Below, piece by piece: positions 25,434 through 31,257 of a DNA stretch of 64,000 bases. Numbering within the stretch: the stretch's first letter is position 1; every line of letters begins with the position of its first letter. The position numbers and the translations under genes are program-made. Source of the stretch: an uncultured delta proteobacterium. GTDB lineage: Bacteria > Myxococcota_A > Polyangia > Fen-1088. Under the pieces are notes generated by a model that was not told the origin of the DNA, did not search any database, and was given only the letters and a program-made list of their open reading frames with translations. The DNA is taken from the NCBI GenBank assembly GCA_963737265.1, contig CAVTRY010000011.1, positions 480,001 through 544,000 on the forward strand, written 5' to 3'.

Positions 25434-26639
25434 GTGAATTCCACCCCTGATGTTCCCGTCGATGTCGCCGTGCTGGGCGCTGGTATCAGCGGGCTTTCCT
25501 TTGCACACCACAGCGCGCGCGCCGGACTGCGCACGCTGGTCCTCGAGAAAGCCGCCGCTCCCGGGGGCAGTATCCACACCGTGCGCACGCCCGAGGGCTT
25601 CTGGCTAGAGCTGGGCGCTCATACGCTTTACAACTCCTACGGAGCGCTGCTGGAAGTCGTCGCGGCGCTCGGTCTCGAGGAGCACGTCTTGCGGCGCCAG
25701 AAAGCACCGTACCGGCTTCTCATCGAAGGAAGACTGCGTTCGGTCCCGTCGCAACTCGCGCTGGGTGAATTGTTCGCGTCGGCATGGCGCATCTTCAGCG
25801 AGCGCAAAGACGGCCGCACCGTCGGTGACTACTACGGCCGACTGGTCGGCAAACGCAACTGGCGGTGCGTCTTCGCCCCGCTGCTGTCGGCCGTGCCCTC
25901 GCAGCGCGCTGACGACTTCCCGACCGAGATGCTGTTCAAGCGGCGTCCGCGTCGCAAGGATTTGCCGCGCAGCTTCACCCTGGAAGGCGGCCTGAACACG
26001 TTGATCGAACGGATCGTCCGCGCCGAGGGCATCACGGTGCAGGCGAATCGTGGGGCGCGCGCCATCAAGCGCACCGAGCGCGGTTTTCTCGTCAGCACCA
26101 ACGACGGCGCCAGCGTCGAGACGCGCAACCTGGTTTTGGCGCTGCCGCCGGATGCCGCCGCAGGCCTGCTCCTTCCCATCGCGCCCGGCGCGTCCGCGGT
26201 CCTTGCGCGCATTCGCATCGCCTCCATTGACTCTACTGGCGTGGTGATTGCCAAGCGCGACCTGTCCATCCCTCGCCTGGCCGGGCTCGTCCCGGTGGAC
26301 GACATCTTCTTCTCGGCGGTCAGCCGCGACGTGATTCCCGATGATCGCTTTCGCGCCCTCGCCTTCCACTTTCGCACCGGGCTCTCGCGCGACGAGCGAC
26401 TCGATCACATCGCCGCCGTGACCAAGACCACGCGCGCAAGCTTCGTCCACGTCGCCGAGCACGCGACCTCCCTGCCCTCGCCCGGCCTCGGCCATGCCGA
26501 TCTCGTGCGCGCCATCGACGAGAGCATCGCCGGCTCGCGCATCTTCATCACCGGCAACTACTTCGGCGGCCTGGCCCTCGAAGACTGCGTGCTGCGCTCG
26601 GTGGCCGAAAGTCGGCGCCTGGTTAGCGAGTGTAGATGA
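25434..26639 (+). CDS. FAD-dependent oxidoreductase, protoporphyrinogen oxidase-like
   Basis: VAVLGAGISGL, LEK...GG, ELGAHT, GNYFGGLALEDC. Confidence 0.8.
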   Translation: MNSTPDVPVDVAVLGAGISGLSFAHHSARAGLRTLVLEKAAAPGGSIHTVRTPEGFWLELGAHTLYNSYGALLEVVAALGLEEHVLRRQKAPYRLLIEGRLRSVPSQLALGELFASAWRIFSERKDGRTVGDYYGRLVGKRNWRCVFAPLLSAVPSQRADDFPTEMLFKRRPRRKDLPRSFTLEGGLNTLIERIVRAEGITVQANRGARAIKRTERGFLVSTNDGASVETRNLVLALPPDAAAGLLLPIAPGASAVLARIRIASIDSTGVVIAKRDLSIPRLAGLVPVDDIFFSAVSRDVIPDDRFRALAFHFRTGLSRDERLDHIAAVTKTTRASFVHVAEHATSLPSPGLGHADLVRAIDESIAGSRIFITGNYFGGLALEDCVLRSVAESRRLVSECR

Positions 26640-27756
26640 CGATTTCCCGGTTGTTGTCGGACGTCTTGCGCGCAATCGCGATCTTGTTTCCGCCCGCCGA
26701 CCACGGATAGGGCTGCTTGTCCGGCAGCGGGATCTCGCCGATGACGGTTACCTTCGCGCTCGCGGGATCGAGGCTGAAGAAATCGAGGGCAAAGCGTGTC
26801 GACTCGTTCATATCGCCGCGCTTTTGCCCTGGACGATCCGCGAGCAACGAGAACACCACCTTGCCGCCCAGCTGATGCTGCTCCAGCGACGTGGGATCGT
26901 AGTCTTGCTTCGGTACTGTCAGATCGATGGCACGAACCTTCTCGCCCGGCCCCACCAATTCGTACCCCTGCTGGCCTTCGGCCGGGACGATGACCGCCGG
27001 CAGATCGGGCTTCTCGCCCCGCTTGCGAACGTAGTCGAGAAAATTATCCAGCTTGGGGGGCGTTTTGCCCGGCCCCGTCTTGCCGCTCTTGATGTCGTAG
27101 AGCGCAAATTGCGGCGGTTGGCGCACGTCGGTCTTGCGGTTGTAGGCGCCGGGTTTCTCGACCATCGCGGCGAAATGGCTGTTGGTGAAACCAAAAAATG
27201 TCGCCCCGTCCAGCCCGGCAACGTTTCCGGCACTGTCGACCACCAAGTCGTGCAGCATGAGTGTCGATCCGTCGGGCCGGTAGGCCTGAATGCTGAAACG
27301 CCGGTTGCCCCCCGGTTCGGTCCTCTCCGAATAGGCCACGAATGCCTTGGGCGACGTGGAAATTTCACAAGAGTCGAACGACTCCGTGGTTCGGCGAATC
27401 CTGCCGCTGGAATCCACGATGGCGGCCCGGCGCTGGCCTTCGTTCGACACCACGAACCAGTAGCCAGCCAGTCCAAGAATCTTTTCCGGCGTGGCCGAGA
27501 AGCTGGCGATGTCGGAAACATGTTGCTTGCCCCCCGGCGGCCCGACGAGAAACTGCACGGCGCCCTTGGCGGTGAACTGGATGGTGGCCAGCTTGCCGCC
27601 GGTTTCGTCGAGCGCGAAGGCGTCGTGAAGCGTGCCTCCGCTGGCGGTAACCTTCCCGGAAGGCTTTAGGAGCTTGGGCGCTGCCAGAAGGGGGCCGCTG
27701 ATTAAACATGAGAGCGAGAGCGCGGACAGCGAGAGGAAGGTCATGCTGCGCTTCAT
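26623..27756 (-). CDS. Hypothetical secreted protein (beta-propeller-like)
   Basis: Signal peptide; long ORF rich in beta-strand-like segments. Confidence 0.65.
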   Translation of the reverse strand: MKRSMTFLSLSALSLSCLISGPLLAAPKLLKPSGKVTASGGTLHDAFALDETGGKLATIQFTAKGAVQFLVGPPGGKQHVSDIASFSATPEKILGLAGYWFVVSNEGQRRAAIVDSSGRIRRTTESFDSCEISTSPKAFVAYSERTEPGGNRRFSIQAYRPDGSTLMLHDLVVDSAGNVAGLDGATFFGFTNSHFAAMVEKPGAYNRKTDVRQPPQFALYDIKSGKTGPGKTPPKLDNFLDYVRKRGEKPDLPAVIVPAEGQQGYELVGPGEKVRAIDLTVPKQDYDPTSLEQHQLGGKVVFSLLADRPGQKRGDMNESTRFALDFFSLDPASAKVTVIGEIPLPDKQPYPWSAGGNKIAIARKTSDNNREIVIYTR

Positions 27757-27826
27757 GGCGCGCATCTTACGTCCATGTCGGAAGAATTCGTCAAGCCATT
27801 CGCGCCCCAGTTTGCCAACCCGTTGT

Positions 27827-28404
27827 GGGTGCCTCCCTGAAACGGGGGCCCCAGCCGGGGGCTCGGTGAGGTAGCAACTTCTGGCGGAGTGCCGCCGAAA
27901 ACGCAGATATGGAACAGCGAGGAACGGAGAAACAGAGACAGGATGACTTTACTGGGCAAATTATCGCCGCCTGCATCGAAGTCCACCGTCACCTCGGTCC
28001 CGGGCTGCTTGAGTCGGCCTACGAGCACTGCCTGGCGCGCGAGCTAGGCCTGCGTGGATTTCGCACGCAACGTCAGGTCGCGATTCCTCTGCAGTACAAA
28101 GGCATTGACCTCGACTGCGGCTATCGCCTCGACCTCATGGTGGAAGGCCGTTTGGTCGTCGAAGTCAAGGCGGTAGAGCAGTTGCTTCCTGTCCACTTGG
28201 CACAGTCATTACCTATCTCAAGCTCCTACGACTGCCGGTGGGCCTGCTCGTCAATTTCCACGTCCCCGTACTTCGCGAGGGTCTCCGCCGCCTCGTCAAC
28301 CCAACCCGTGATTCCTCTGGTCCTCCGTTCCTCCCTGTTTTTCCCTCCGATCCCACCTGCGCGGGGCGAGGTGAAGCCACAGCCCCCATTTCAGGGAAGC
28401 ACCC
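27827..28404. mobile_element. Non-autonomous 578-bp element with terminal inverted repeats, carrying a GxxExxY gene
   Basis: IRs GGGTGCCTCCCTGAAACGGGGGC (27827-27849) and reverse complement GGGTGCTTCCCTGAAATGGGGGC (28382-28404), 21/23; ACCCGTTGT directly repeated at 27818-27826 and 28405-28413. Confidence 0.85.
27909..28311 (+). CDS. GxxExxY protein (PD-(D/E)XK-like); frameshift near 28205, 3' end uncertain
   Basis: IEVHRHLGPGLLESAYE, YRLDLMVE...VVEVKAV; continues as ITYLKL...GLLVNF in the next frame. Confidence 0.9.
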
Positions 28405-28456
28405 ACCCGTTGTTCGGATCTGTGTATCGGGACGAGACACGGCTACAATAGTTCCG

Positions 28457-29437
28457 GTGTACGCGAGCTTGATTCTGGCCACCGCTCAGGCCGCCCTGGT
28501 CACGGTTGCCCCTGGTCCGAGCGACAACTGCCCGTCTTCGGCGCAGGTGCTGGCAGCGCTCGAATCACACGCACCAGCCTTGATAGCGCCAGGCACGGAT
28601 GGCGATTCGGCCGGCCAAACGACCTTGGTGCTCTCACCCGCGTTGGCCACCGGTGAGATCACCTTCTTCCTCCTCGACGGGGCTGGCCGCGTGAAACTGA
28701 ATCGCACCTTGCCTCCTCCCGATGGAGATCGCGGGCGCGACTGCGCCGCGCTTGCCGACACCGTGGCCTTGATCGTCGACCGCTACTACAACGAGGTCGA
28801 ACTGCCTCCGCTGCCCGAGAAAAAGGCCAAGGCCGAGCCAGCGCCCGCGCCACCTTCACAAAAGCTCGCGCGCGAGCCTGAGCTCAAGCCCCAGATCGAG
28901 GCTGGAAAGTACGCGCTTTCCCTAGGTACAGGCAGACGGACGCCGGACTCCGCGACGTATCTTGGCGGAGACGAGATTAGCCTGATAGGCGGAATGGCCG
29001 TGGCTGGGTTTGGACGGCGCGGAGGGCGGCTGTGGCTCGAAACGTCCGCGGGCATCGTGGGGATTGGGATTGTGTATTGGGGCTGGCCGCAGGGGAATGT
29101 GACCGTCGTCCGCACCGCTTGGGGTCTGTCTGCTCTGCTGGCCTGGCCGGTGTGGCGCGGGCGCCTCTACGCGGGCGCGTCGACTTCCGTCGAGTACCTC
29201 TGGTTAGATGCCACGTCCAACAGCCACCTCCAGCATGAAACGCGTCTGGCTTCGTCTTCCGGCCTGCGTGCTGGCTACTTGCTCTTCTTGCGAGAACACA
29301 TCTTCGTTCGAACGGACTTGGGCGGCGACGTCGCCACTGTGCGCTATAGACTTGCAACGCAAAGCGGCTCTGGCACGCTGCTTAGCGCACCGCGGGTTTT
29401 CGCCACGGTAGCCATTGGCGTTGGAATTTCCTTCTGA
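28457..29437 (+). CDS. Hypothetical secreted protein, possible C-terminal beta-barrel
   Basis: CPS...RTL...DCAALADTVALIV; terminal GVGISF; first gene of ECF cassette. Confidence 0.6.
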   Translation: MYASLILATAQAALVTVAPGPSDNCPSSAQVLAALESHAPALIAPGTDGDSAGQTTLVLSPALATGEITFFLLDGAGRVKLNRTLPPPDGDRGRDCAALADTVALIVDRYYNEVELPPLPEKKAKAEPAPAPPSQKLAREPELKPQIEAGKYALSLGTGRRTPDSATYLGGDEISLIGGMAVAGFGRRGGRLWLETSAGIVGIGIVYWGWPQGNVTVVRTAWGLSALLAWPVWRGRLYAGASTSVEYLWLDATSNSHLQHETRLASSSGLRAGYLLFLREHIFVRTDLGGDVATVRYRLATQSGSGTLLSAPRVFATVAIGVGISF

Positions 29438-29488: not shown

Positions 29489-30067
29489 ATGGGACAAAAG
29501 CAGTTCACCAAAACCCCATTGCCGATGCCAGGGGCGGCGGCTGACGCCGAGCTTGTGCGGTTGTGCAGGGAAGGAGATACGGCGGCCTGGCGCAGCCTCT
29601 ATGATCGCCACGCGCCGTCGGTTTATCGTTTCACCGCCGCGCTTGGCGTGCCGGCCGAGGAGCGCGAGGATGCGGCGCAAGACATCTTCATCGCCGTCTT
29701 CCGTAGTCTGCGCCATTTTCGCGGGGAGGCGCAGCTATCCACCTGGATCTACCGAATCGCCGCGCGCCACGCGATTCGACTTGGGCGACGGCGACGAGCG
29801 CGCGAGATGATGCGCGCGGTCATGCTGAAAGAGTCGCCCCATCCCACCATCGACCCCGCCGAACGGTCGACACAAATCGCGACCCTCGACCGAATGCTGG
29901 CCAAACTTCCCCTGAAAAAGCGAACCGTCCTCGTTCTGTTCGAGATCGAAGGGCTGTCGGCCAAAGAGATTTCCGACGTCGTTGGGTGCCCCGAGAACAC
30001 CGTCTGGTCGCGCCTTCACCATGCGCGGGCCGAGATGGTTGCGGTGGCAAGGAGAATGGTGTCATGA
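29489..30067 (+). CDS. ECF sigma-70 factor
   Basis: EDAAQDIF, QLSTWIYRI, EGLSAKEISDVVG...TVWSRLHHAR. Confidence 0.93.
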   Translation: MGQKQFTKTPLPMPGAAADAELVRLCREGDTAAWRSLYDRHAPSVYRFTAALGVPAEEREDAAQDIFIAVFRSLRHFRGEAQLSTWIYRIAARHAIRLGRRRRAREMMRAVMLKESPHPTIDPAERSTQIATLDRMLAKLPLKKRTVLVLFEIEGLSAKEISDVVGCPENTVWSRLHHARAEMVAVARRMVS

Positions 30068-31257
30068 AGTGGCTTGAACCGCCTCGCAGCGAAGCCGAGC
30101 GCCTAGTTCGCGAGGGATTGGACCAGGCGGCGCAGCGAACCGGCGATGAAATTACCCATCGCAGGGTGTGGGCCCAGATCGGCGACACGACCGAGGCGCC
30201 ACCTTTGCGATCTTACCGCGGCCTCGTCGTCTCGGGCGCTGCGCTCGTGCTGCTCGGCATGGCCGGCGTACTCGCGTATTCCCATCTGCATGGCAAGGTT
30301 CCGGTGGCGGTCGTTGCCGGCAATCCGACGCCCCCGACGGCTCCGGACAATCCACCGATGGTGGTTGGATCGGATTCCACGTCCTCGCAGGAGGCCGCCA
30401 TTGCCGAAGCCGAACACGTGCCTGGACACTATGTGCGAACCGGTCCGGGTGAGCGAGCACGCGTAGCGCTCGGCGGCGGGGCGGAAGCGGCTCTGGACGA
30501 GAGTTCCGCGCTCACTTGGGACAGCCAGCATCGCCCTTCAATTGAACGAGGGAGCGCGCGGATGTCGGTTCCCCATCAGCCACCCGGCTGGAGATTCTCG
30601 GTCACTGCCGGGCCCTATGTCGTCACCGTGGTAGGCACGAAATTCGACGTTCGCGTGGCAAGCCGCATGGTGGGAGTCGACGTGTCCGAGGGCATCGTCG
30701 AGGTCTGGCACGGAACGCACTCGACCAGGCTGGTTGCTGGTGACTCCTGGCATGGGCCGCTCTATCCCGAGGAGTCGTTGCCAGTGCAGCCGTCGCTTGC
30801 GCCCACGCCGACGGCTGACAACTCTCCGGCCGTGACTCCGGCGCGCGGCAAGCCGTCGTTGCAAACAAGCCAGAGTCTGCTGGATGCCCAGGCCGCTCTC
30901 CAAGCCGGGAACTCTTCCAAGGCTGTCGAGATCCTCACTCGCACTGCCCAGGGCAACGGCCCGGCCGCGGAGAACGCGGCTTATGAGCTGGGACGAATCG
31001 CGCGCTACCATCTCGATCATCCGCGCCAAGCGGTTGCCCTGTGGGACAAATATCGAATCCGATTTCCGTCCGGCCTGCTGCGCACGGAGGCCGACCTGTC
31101 CATCGTCGAGACATTGAGTCACATGGGCGACGTGCGCGCCGCCCTAGCCGAAGCCGACGCCTTTGTGACGCGCCACCCGGACAGCGAACGGCGTCTCGAC
31201 GTGCAGCGACTGGCCGAACGTCTGCGCGCCGCCGAAGCCGCCGCCGATTCCAGGTGA
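30064..31257 (+). CDS. FecR-domain anti-sigma factor with TPR-like tail
   Basis: TM helix; VTVVGTKFDV...VDVSEGIVEV; YRIRFPSGLLRTEA. Confidence 0.8.
   Translation: MKWLEPPRSEAERLVREGLDQAAQRTGDEITHRRVWAQIGDTTEAPPLRSYRGLVVSGAALVLLGMAGVLAYSHLHGKVPVAVVAGNPTPPTAPDNPPMVVGSDSTSSQEAAIAEAEHVPGHYVRTGPGERARVALGGGAEAALDESSALTWDSQHRPSIERGSARMSVPHQPPGWRFSVTAGPYVVTVVGTKFDVRVASRMVGVDVSEGIVEVWHGTHSTRLVAGDSWHGPLYPEESLPVQPSLAPTPTADNSPAVTPARGKPSLQTSQSLLDAQAALQAGNSSKAVEILTRTAQGNGPAAENAAYELGRIARYHLDHPRQAVALWDKYRIRFPSGLLRTEADLSIVETLSHMGDVRAALAEADAFVTRHPDSERRLDVQRLAERLRAAEAAADSR

Follow-up and report, generated by a model that had tools for sequence, protein, structure and literature searches.

A GxxExxY nuclease gene with its own inverted arms is the cargo of a transposase-free, probably trans-mobilized transposon in a Polyangia genome

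Analysis of a 64,000-nucleotide stretch from an uncultured delta proteobacterium (Polyangia, Fen-1088) revealed a 578-bp element with a single gene, a member of the GxxExxY nuclease family. This whole stretch, positions 480001 to 544000 of contig C11 of the source genome (G000; 6.55 Mb, 25 contigs), is referred to below as the window. The element occupies positions 27827 to 28404 of the window. It is very probably one copy of a non-autonomous transposon of the DDE (Asp-Asp-Glu) type that is mobilized in trans, most likely by a transposase of the ISKra4 family, and that carries an older GxxExxY unit as cargo. A first-pass annotation of the window had proposed a miniature inverted-repeat transposable element (MITE) mobilized in trans or, alternatively, a mobile unit consisting of the gene and its inner repeats nested within a MITE.

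The element is bounded by terminal inverted repeats (TIRs) of 23 bp that match at 21 positions (25 nt at 92% when two flanking bases are counted), and the 9-bp direct repeat ACCCGTTGT abuts both TIR tips, as the annotation had described. Allowing up to 3 mismatches, the TIR 23-mer was found at only two places in the window, and none of 100 shuffled sequences gave a match. The nested inverted repeat around the open reading frame (ORF) is also real and proved to be longer than claimed (25 nt, 88%). The only ORF in the element with a family match belongs to PF13366/TIGR04256, and no transposase gene is present, so that the element was rightly called transposase-free. No stop codon terminates the consensus cargo ORF within the element, and its frame continues outward across the right TIR. 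The cargo of the window copy had been taken for a single ORF; it is the only one in the element, but it is frameshifted. One G is missing at consensus position 379 (after 28204), and the reading frame is shifted from two thirds of the nuclease domain onward. The match of the window copy to PF13366 (PDDEXK_3) therefore ends at profile position 89 (positions 2 to 89 of 117, 102.9 bits) and is incomplete compared with that of the intact copies (positions 2 to 116, 138.9 bits). Scanning of the element predicted no sigma-70-type promoter and no terminator. A permissive Rfam scan of positions 27500 to 28800 gave a single match of 13.6 bits against a threshold of 210, which was taken as chance.

A search of the G000 genome revealed 31 full-length copies of the element and about 10 partial or interrupted ones. 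Local blastn gave 44 high-scoring segment pairs, of which 31 were full length and the rest partial, internally deleted, or interrupted. The TIR tips are the exact limits of similarity among the full-length copies, and the TIRs are conserved in all 31. Perfect 9-bp target duplications flank 29 of the 31 copies, each with a different sequence, which is the result that the annotation had proposed to look for. Of the two remaining duplications, one reads as 10 bp and one, at an older copy, has 2 mismatches in 9. The duplications show no target consensus, and their GC content (0.65) is close to that of the genome (0.63). The element consensus is 579 bp long; most copies differ from it at 0 to 9 positions, and a second subfamily of 4 copies (564 to 569 bp) is about 93% identical. 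This copy number excludes a chance origin of the TIRs and duplications. In four soil-metagenome runs from one study, the contigs have their breakpoints at precisely 27827 and 28404, beyond which they continue into different flanks. Their depth was about 60 to 98 over the element and 6.4 on the flank, as for a collapsed repeat, and the collapsed contigs carry the extra G at position 379, which is the majority, intact form.

The flanks of the window copy were matched in all 12 same-genus relatives (G001 to G012), which belong to a set of 40 relatives that together with G000 make up 41 family genomes. In 10 of the 12, a single contig carried both flanks, and in each of these the distance between them was 538 to 607 bp shorter than in the window, where a difference of 587 bp was expected for an empty site. 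Alignment of G001 across the junction showed 54 bp in place of the 637 bp in the window. These relatives are other species, with flanks about 70 to 78% identical, and their empty sites therefore demonstrate ancestral absence rather than a segregating allele. The annotation had named, as the finding that would speak against it, a segment present at every orthologous locus with no further copies in existence; the outcome was the opposite on both counts. The element with its TIRs was found in none of the 40 relatives. An exact-pattern TIR scan of GTDB representative genomes gave one other match (L120), a single end for which no partner lay within 3.4 kb. The burst is thus confined to G000. The features of the window copy are listed in Table 1.

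Table 1. Features of the window copy (positions in the window)
Feature	Position	Strand	Remark
Left target-site duplication ACCCGTTGT, 9 bp	27818..27826	.	Repeated at the right end
Left outer TIR GGGTGCCTCCCTGAAACGGGGGC	27827..27849	+	19/23 match to the left end of the ISKra4-family insertion sequence on contig C20
Leader, outer-element-only part	27850-27866	+	Inside the leader 27850..27908
Leader, inner-unit part TGAGGTAGCAACTTCTGG..GCAGAT with a small hairpin	27867-27908	+	Kept with the gene in the TIR-less units of G005 and G009
GxxExxY (PF13366 / TIGR04256) nuclease ORF, codons 1-132	27909..28303	+	Frameshifted: one G lost after 28204
Inner inverted repeat, left arm, tandem GGAACRGAG-like units	27913..27937	+	Overlaps codons 2-10
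Inner inverted repeat, right arm	28315..28339	+	Just past the end of the nuclease domain
Spacer, inner unit to right TIR	28340..28381	+	First ~15-20 nt (..TCCGATCCCACC) common to the unit of the relatives
Right outer TIR	28382..28404	-	Pairs with the left TIR, 21/23
Right target-site duplication ACCCGTTGT	28405..28413	.	Identical to the left copy

The copies are unevenly distributed in G000. Contigs C12, C22, and C23 (0.43 to 0.55 Mb each) carry 5 to 7 full-length copies each, the 1.4-Mb contig C11 carries 2 and a truncated one, and C16 (0.45 Mb) carries none. This could reflect hopping over short distances, a bias of certain replicons or regions, or the mixing of genomes in the bin, whose contamination is estimated at 7.6%. 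At C17:62354-63520, two copies lie head to tail with exactly the 9-bp duplication between them, which is present three times in all (GCGCCACGG|copy|GCGCCACGG|copy|GCGCCACGG). Several positions diagnostic of the subfamilies distinguish the two, and the arrangement suggests that a second element entered the target duplicated by the first.

A fuzzy search of the whole G000 genome for the TIR (up to 5 mismatches) revealed one more pair in inverted orientation, which spans 2,120 bp (C20:66979-69098). It bounds an insertion sequence (IS) with a 466-amino-acid (aa) ORF at C20:67126-68523 that scores 256.9 bits on the NCBIfam profile NF033572, "ISKra4 family transposase" (cutoff, 205 bits). The ends of the C20 IS match those of the element at 19 of 23 positions, and the IS is flanked by a 9-bp duplication (GGAAAGCGG). 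It is present as a single copy in G000, and its transposase was found in only 1 of the 41 family genomes, G000 itself, the same genome as the burst. A second, distant member of the family in G000, a 1,782-bp IS described below, likewise starts with GGGTG and has 9-bp duplications. The autonomous IS that the annotation had expected thus has a counterpart in the C20 IS with the same duplication length and similar ends, but these ends are not the same: no element with ends identical to those of the MITE was found in G000, the 40 relatives, or the GTDB representative genomes.

The state of the cargo in the single copies agrees with mobilization in trans. The ORF is broken in 15 of the 31 full-length copies, and the catalytic residues are intact in the other 16. 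Several lesions are shared by copies at different sites (379delG in 8 copies, 470delG in 5, and the start-codon loss 83A>C in 3). This result indicates that lineages with damaged cargo continued to multiply, and the cargo is therefore not needed in cis. Together with the many copies, the element-free sites, and the related IS, these lineages strongly support the proposal of a MITE-like unit mobilized in trans. In the mechanism that we propose, an ISKra4-family transposase would recognize the 23-bp ends in trans and insert the element with 9-bp staggered cuts, and the single 2,120-bp IS on C20 would be the best helper candidate. The outer element would move by conventional cut-or-copy DDE transposition and would have expanded in this way to about 40 copies in G000. 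The cargo would ride passively, functional at the level of the lineage and decaying in single copies, of which the frameshifted window copy would be an example. Both the transposase that acts and the role of the cargo are what we infer from these observations.

Several points weigh against this interpretation. Similarity between the C20 IS and the element is limited to the terminal ~22 nt, with 4 mismatches in 23, and blastn detected no internal similarity; cross-mobilization by its transposase is therefore plausible rather than proven. The true helper could have been lost, could be missing from the assembly of 25 contigs, or could be a different IS. The association of the IS with the burst comes from a single genome. 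The four soil-metagenome runs contained no contig or read across an element-free site, and the flanks adjoining the element were uncovered there. The shared indels could in part be assembly or polishing errors in a repeat, and the variant pattern among the copies is mosaic, which also fits gene conversion.

The outer element belongs to a known class. Mobile insertion cassettes, i.e., MITEs with a passenger gene, are known, for example, MIC231 of the Bacillus cereus group. Like the element described here, they combine IS-type TIRs and a target duplication with unrelated cargo, many copies, the lack of a transposase, and presumed mobilization in trans. The present element differs from them in its ISKra4-type ends, in a cargo that is itself bracketed by repeats and is also found in other transposable elements, and in a cargo ORF that reads through the right end of the element. 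With the ISKra4 family (NF033572), it shares the 9-bp duplication and termini that start GGGTGCCT..GAAACGGGGG, as in the C20 IS. Unlike members of that family, it has no transposase, and it shares nothing with the C20 IS beyond the termini; it is therefore not a simple internal-deletion derivative of that IS. The locus is direct evidence that a GxxExxY gene spreads as cargo of a transposase-free transposon, and the expectation that genes of this family travel as mobile cassettes is borne out to that extent.

The cargo is a clear member of the GxxExxY family. Intact copies score 140.8 bits on TIGR04256 (cutoff, 35 bits) and cover PF13366 end to end. In an alignment of 16 sequences, the G.G..E..Y motif (G18, G20, E23, and Y26) and the residues D63, E73, and Q87 are invariant, and K75 is nearly so. 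The annotation had described the family as "PD-(D/E)XK-like, of unknown function"; the membership is correct, and the wording is too loose, as the E, D, ExK, and Q residues are conserved in the alignment. Between the MITE subfamilies, the domain shows 8 synonymous and 3 conservative nonsynonymous differences (Fisher P = 0.0013). Omega was 0.11 to 0.26 for the MITE cargo compared with the units of G005 and G009. This substitution pattern indicates that the cargo is a functional nuclease gene kept by selection at the level of the lineage.

The AlphaFold model of the nuclease (pLDDT, the predicted local distance difference test score, of 95) shows an alpha-beta nuclease core. Foldseek comparison of the model with the PDB gave nothing at an E value of ≤0.001. 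The best matches were generic PD-(D/E)XK folds, namely, Cas4 SSO0001 (E = 0.012), Hjc, lambda exonuclease, and tRNA-splicing endonuclease, and therefore no specific structural relative can be named. A sequence search of the PDB gave no match at an E value of ≤0.01. The family is very large: among 8,000 candidates scored, 7,976 cluster representatives belonged to it at an E value of ≤1e-10. The relatives P0030, P0031, P0044, P0062, P0063, P0067, and P0076 fall in a length class of 263 to 272 aa, and the three of them whose sequences were inspected (P0030, P0031, and P0067) contain two GxxExxY domains in tandem. A passage in PMC3424549 gives the function of PDDEXK_3 as unknown, with "multiple transfers." One retrieved literature passage that names GxxExxY concerns a mix-up with Cas4, and the retrieved passages containing the name held nothing on repeats or mobility.

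Comparison with relatives revealed that the gene and its inner repeats form a unit that is found apart from the outer TIRs. This inner unit of about 475 bp, made up of a short leader, the ORF, and both inner arms, corresponds to element positions ~46 to 520. Versions of it that lack the outer TIRs are present once in G005 (contig C17, 91% identical) and twice in G009 (81 to 82% identical), with unrelated flanks; conservation of the leader in these TIR-less units begins at about element position 41 to 46. The synonymous distance between the G000 and G005 units is about 0.17 to 0.18, though flanking orthologues are about 72% identical. No clean unfilled sites were found for the TIR-less G009 units, whose flanks are rearranged or unconserved.

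The unit also occurs in other transposons. G003 and G004 contain an internally deleted version (element positions 80 to 180 joined to 454 to 535) inside a different MITE of about 315 to 400 bp, which has unrelated, longer TIRs near GGGAACCCTGAGAGGGCACCCCTTTCAAGGTGTT and is present in at least 10 copies (e.g., L038 [G004:C267], 1485 to 1800). All copies of this MITE have the same deletion junction, and their multiplication therefore came after the deletion. The ends of this MITE were located, and its target duplication was not readable. In G050, from another family of the phylum (L107 to L112), a GxxExxY unit lies after the stop codon of an ORF and before the right end of an element that is present in 5 to 6 copies with 87 to 99% identity. 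We take this carrier to be IS630-like from the C terminus of the ORF (..PFRWTYTGRALQA) and the TA-ended terminus, which were recognized by eye rather than by a family search. At least three kinds of transposon have therefore captured GxxExxY units, namely, the MITE of G000, that of G003 and G004, and the IS of G050. These carriers and the TIR-less copies support the view that the cargo, a GxxExxY gene between inverted arms of its own that are built from tandem units, is a unit distinct from the outer element and older than it. The alternative in the first-pass annotation, a mobile unit of gene and inner repeats, therefore stands as far as the unit is concerned; its independent mobility we infer from palindromes without an ORF that carry the same arms and co-occur with the gene, rather than from direct observation. 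At the orthologous sites compared, no target duplication was readable for the inner unit or for the ORF-less palindromes because the unfilled orthologues are too diverged.

Inverted arms of this kind are common around GxxExxY genes. The family is present in 19 of 151 genomes sampled from the phylum, mostly with 1 to 7 copies each. The full-length loci of this sample and one non-MITE copy of G000 (n = 19) were tested by comparing the 150 nt before the domain with the 170 nt after it, with 100 shuffles per locus. Highly significant inverted arms were detected at 14 of the 19 loci (z = 10 to 28; 0 of 100 shuffles in each case), and the same test detected none at the other 5. The arms are arrays of 2 to 6 tandem 8- to 9-nt units with the cores CACAGAG, CGCAGAG, CACGGAG, and CGCGAAG. 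Outside the phylum, all four plasmid or chromid records retrieved as tblastn matches were bracketed by arms (z = 9 to 15). These records (Gemmatirosa, Bacteroides finegoldii, Sphingomonas parapaucimobilis, and Bernardetia) cover the Gemmatimonadota, the Bacteroidota (two records), and the Alphaproteobacteria, and the arms of two of them start with TTCAC. The survey of GxxExxY flanks for the inner repeat, which the annotation had recommended, was thus positive within the phylum and beyond it.

The arms are translated as the tails of the protein, which explains the TE-rich (threonine- and glutamate-rich) N-terminal and SV-rich (serine- and valine-rich) C-terminal tails of GxxExxY proteins. Such tails were seen in the 120 nearest database homologues. 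Among the 109 of these with an exact G.G..E..Y motif, strict patterns detected a periodic N-terminal tail in 80, a periodic C-terminal one in 68, and both in 57; many of the homologues that fail the strict patterns visibly carry looser versions. The generality of the arms beyond the phylum is drawn from these tails and the four records.

Several cassettes sit in narrow gaps between host genes. In the three annotated cross-phylum records, the unit is co-directional with its neighbors in a tight gap, between radA and a gene for a flavin adenine dinucleotide-dependent protein, between fabD and fabG, and between ade and a mannose-1-phosphate guanylyltransferase gene. The non-MITE cassette of G000 (L137 [G000:C22], 1421 to 1891) lies between a gene that we take to be comM/yifB-like, from its C terminus, and one that is presumably recA, from its N terminus, each recognized without a family search. 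The ORF of this cassette spans from arm to arm (MFTTECTEGAEDGEE...SVSSASSVPSVVKNS). Both in this cassette and in that between fabD and fabG (L123, Sphingomonas parapaucimobilis, 1450 to 1911), the start codon directly follows the upstream stop codon, and the ribosome-binding site of the downstream gene directly follows the right arm. At the site upstream of recA, a cassette is present in G000, G002, G003, G005, G008, and G010 and remnants are present in G001, G007, and G011; none was detectable in G006 and G012. From species to species, the two arms of these cassettes change together, and the number of units varies.

Arms were also found without the gene. G000 contains 14 triple-unit arm arrays, compared with 0.33 in shuffled sequences, and several of these are pairs 55 to 115 bp apart that fold as hairpins (-40 to -110 kcal/mol). 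With a profile derived from six arrays, about 14 ORF-less palindromes of 105 to 125 bp were detected in G000, none of them in the window; these palindromes carry the arms of the cassette between the comM-like gene and recA. The 13 genomes of the genus were searched on both strands for the pattern CACCACRGAGN{1,2}CRCRGAG, with the reversed pattern as a control; the counts are given in Table 2.

Table 2. Arm matches and GxxExxY genes in the genus
Genome	Arm matches	GxxExxY (TIGR04256) matches
G004	129	1
G002	110	1
G009	78	2
G008	49	2
G010	23	1
G003	17	1
G000	15	40
G005	13	2
G001	3	0
G011	1	0
G006	0	0
G007	0	0
G012	0	0

The arms are common in all 8 genomes with the gene (13 to 129 matches) and in none of the 5 without it (0 to 3 matches) (Fisher P = 0.0008), and the control gave 0 matches everywhere. 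In the phylum sample, which was scored with one triple-unit arm pattern, at least 4 arrays were present in 7 of 19 gene-bearing genomes and in 1 of 132 others (P = 1.2e-6). Both comparisons treat related genomes as independent, and these P values overstate the case. G050 has 102 arm matches and 6 GxxExxY genes, and many of its arms form hairpin pairs 25 to 45 bp apart. For the arm type of the MITE cargo, 36 matches were found in G009, a genome with two genes of this type. These arms occur as ORF-less hairpins, with examples in G009, G010, and G005; in G000, they are found only inside the MITE copies. One palindrome at an orthologous site is present in G000, G001, G002, and G008 and absent from G010.

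These observations could mean that the GxxExxY nuclease and its arms are the active partner of a system resembling those of REPINs (repetitive extragenic palindromic doublets forming hairpins) and RAYTs (REP-associated tyrosine transposases), with the MITE as only one vehicle. We consider this reading, which complements the trans-mobilized transposon rather than replacing it, to be evenly balanced between true and false. The arms that bracket the gene within and beyond the phylum, unit cores that are alike across phyla, and the TTCAC with which several arms begin speak for it, as do the arms shared by cassettes and ORF-less palindromes, the abundance of arms that tracks the gene, their covariation in the orthologous cassettes upstream of recA, and the palindrome that is present or missing at one site among genus members. 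Weighed against this are the dependence among the related genomes already mentioned and the counts of dispersed arms, which include the cassettes' own two arms and are inflated by them. Moreover, 11 of the 19 gene-bearing genomes of the phylum gave no match to the single unit pattern tried, because their arms use other units that were not counted, and G089 has 7 arrays but no gene at an E value of ≤1e-10. No clean filled and unfilled pair was close enough for a target duplication to be read, and the joint loss of gene and repeats could reflect common descent.

The organization agrees in several respects with REPIN-RAYT systems as described in parts of PMC3116915, PMC3337134, and bioRxiv 10.1101/2021.07.10.451892. 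The gene is present in one or a few copies flanked by inverted repeats and is vertically retained at one site in the genus. The repeats are scattered outside genes as short palindromic doublets, with copy numbers from tens to more than 100, and they are present with the gene and nearly absent where it has been lost. Compared with what those parts describe, the enzyme differs, being a minimal PD-(D/E)XK nuclease of about 120 to 155 aa and not an HUH/Y1 (IS200/IS605-like) transposase; the unit is therefore not a REPIN-RAYT member, and the likeness is one of organization only. In addition, the arms are tandem arrays of 8- to 9-nt units translated as N- and C-terminal protein tails, and the gene unit also rides conventional transposons.

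As a slightly more tentative step, GxxExxY genes might serve as protein-coding master copies for a class of bacterial repeats that is widespread but has not been described so far, with a nuclease that would recognize the arms and spread or maintain the ORF-less palindromes. If so, this would explain the multicopy, patchy distribution of the GxxExxY family. If the nuclease acts on the arms, gene and arms would constitute a second REPIN-RAYT-type system with an unrelated mechanism and a handle on the origin of extragenic palindromes outside the Proteobacteria. The idea would apply to the whole family: the gene would bring its own arms, the arms would populate genomes as palindromes, and the repeats would track the gene. 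A search of the literature on extragenic palindromes together with restriction-endonuclease-like proteins and myxobacteria found nothing relevant, and the system of gene plus arms is apparently undescribed as far as the literature searches show.

The inner repeat could instead act at the level of RNA. The arms would pair in the transcript, and the stem would occlude the start region or form a site for a double-strand RNase, which would insulate or repress a promoterless cassette. We regard this as doubtful. Folding of the transcript, which the first-pass annotation had suggested, gave for the intact copy a minimum-free-energy structure in which the inner arms form the closing stem and the AUG lies at its base; the fold of the whole element was not clearly better than that of shuffled sequences (z = -1.8; 2 of 20 shuffles fold as well). 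In G050, an arm contains GAGG just upstream of the ATG. A role in RNA would also suit the lack of a predicted promoter or terminator in the element, the co-directional position of cassettes in tight gaps between host genes (at radA, fabD and fabG, ade, and the comM-like gene and recA), and arms that stay complementary through species-specific changes. Mismatches on the sense strand, however, showed no clear excess of the G:U-compatible type over A:C (35 versus 23; P = 0.15), and pairing alone leaves the tandem units, the core shared across phyla, and the ORF-less copies unexplained. Such a role may well be compatible with a nuclease that acts on the arms, and the two are not exclusive. Correia/NEMIS elements of Neisseria are small palindromic intergenic elements that are co-transcribed with neighboring genes, can form RNA stems, have no ORF, and duplicate TA. 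The units described here resemble them as small palindromic intergenic elements with inverted ends able to form RNA stems and differ from them in having a protein-coding master unit and no readable duplication for the inner unit.

With respect to the outer element, it is improbable that the helper is not the C20 IS but another or vanished transposase. G000 contains two further candidates. One is a 1,782-bp IS with the ends GGGTGGGTTGCACGGG, located at C7:274440-276221 and at about 9 further sites. These ~10 copies are 99.7 to 100% identical, and their open frame of 585 aa is a distant relative of ISKra4/ISLre2 transposases. This IS looks active, starts with GGGTG, and has 9-bp duplications, but its ends share only the GGGTG with the MITE. 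The other is an IS4-family IS of 1,428 bp with a 438-aa transposase and about 10 copies. Duplications of the IS4 family can span 9 to 12 bp, and one of about 11 bp was read here, but the ends of this IS (CATAGGCATTAACCC) are unrelated to those of the MITE. The single copy of the C20 IS and the 4 of 23 positions at which its ends differ from the MITE favor such a different helper; on the other side, the C20 IS alone matched at 19 of 23 positions in the genome-wide search with up to 5 mismatches. That the 578-bp element is autonomous, with the GxxExxY nuclease itself moving the outer TIR-bounded unit, is very improbable: although its gene is the only ORF, the catalytic residues are intact in about half of the copies, and some transposition systems use PD-(D/E)XK nucleases (e.g., TnsA of Tn7), the unit is found without these TIRs in other genomes and inside elements with quite different ends, the outer ends and 9-bp duplication fit the ISKra4-family ISs of G000 itself, lineages with broken ORFs multiplied regardless, and the minimal fold of 120 residues has no strand-transfer module.

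The IS4-family IS was found inserted in two copies of the element (C20:14671-16100 and C23:162588-164019). The two insertion points mirror each other, at a distance of about 24 to 35 nt from one or the other TIR tip, and fall in the GC-rich sequence CCCCAGCCGGGG. The presence of 2 of its 10 copies within 0.35% of the genome has a P value of 5.5e-4.

The window copy occupies a divergent intergenic region (window positions 27763 to 27826 and 28405 to 28460). A 380-aa ORF without a Pfam match lies on the minus strand at 26623-27765, and the copy is located 61 bp upstream of its start. On the other side, a plus-strand ORF downstream of the copy and the shifted cargo tail are in the same frame and together give rise to an artificial open frame of 399 aa at 28238-29437. 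Further downstream, positions 29489 to 31257 contain overlapping ORFs for an extracytoplasmic function (ECF) sigma factor (Sigma70_r2/r4_2) and a FecR-domain protein, an ordinary pair.

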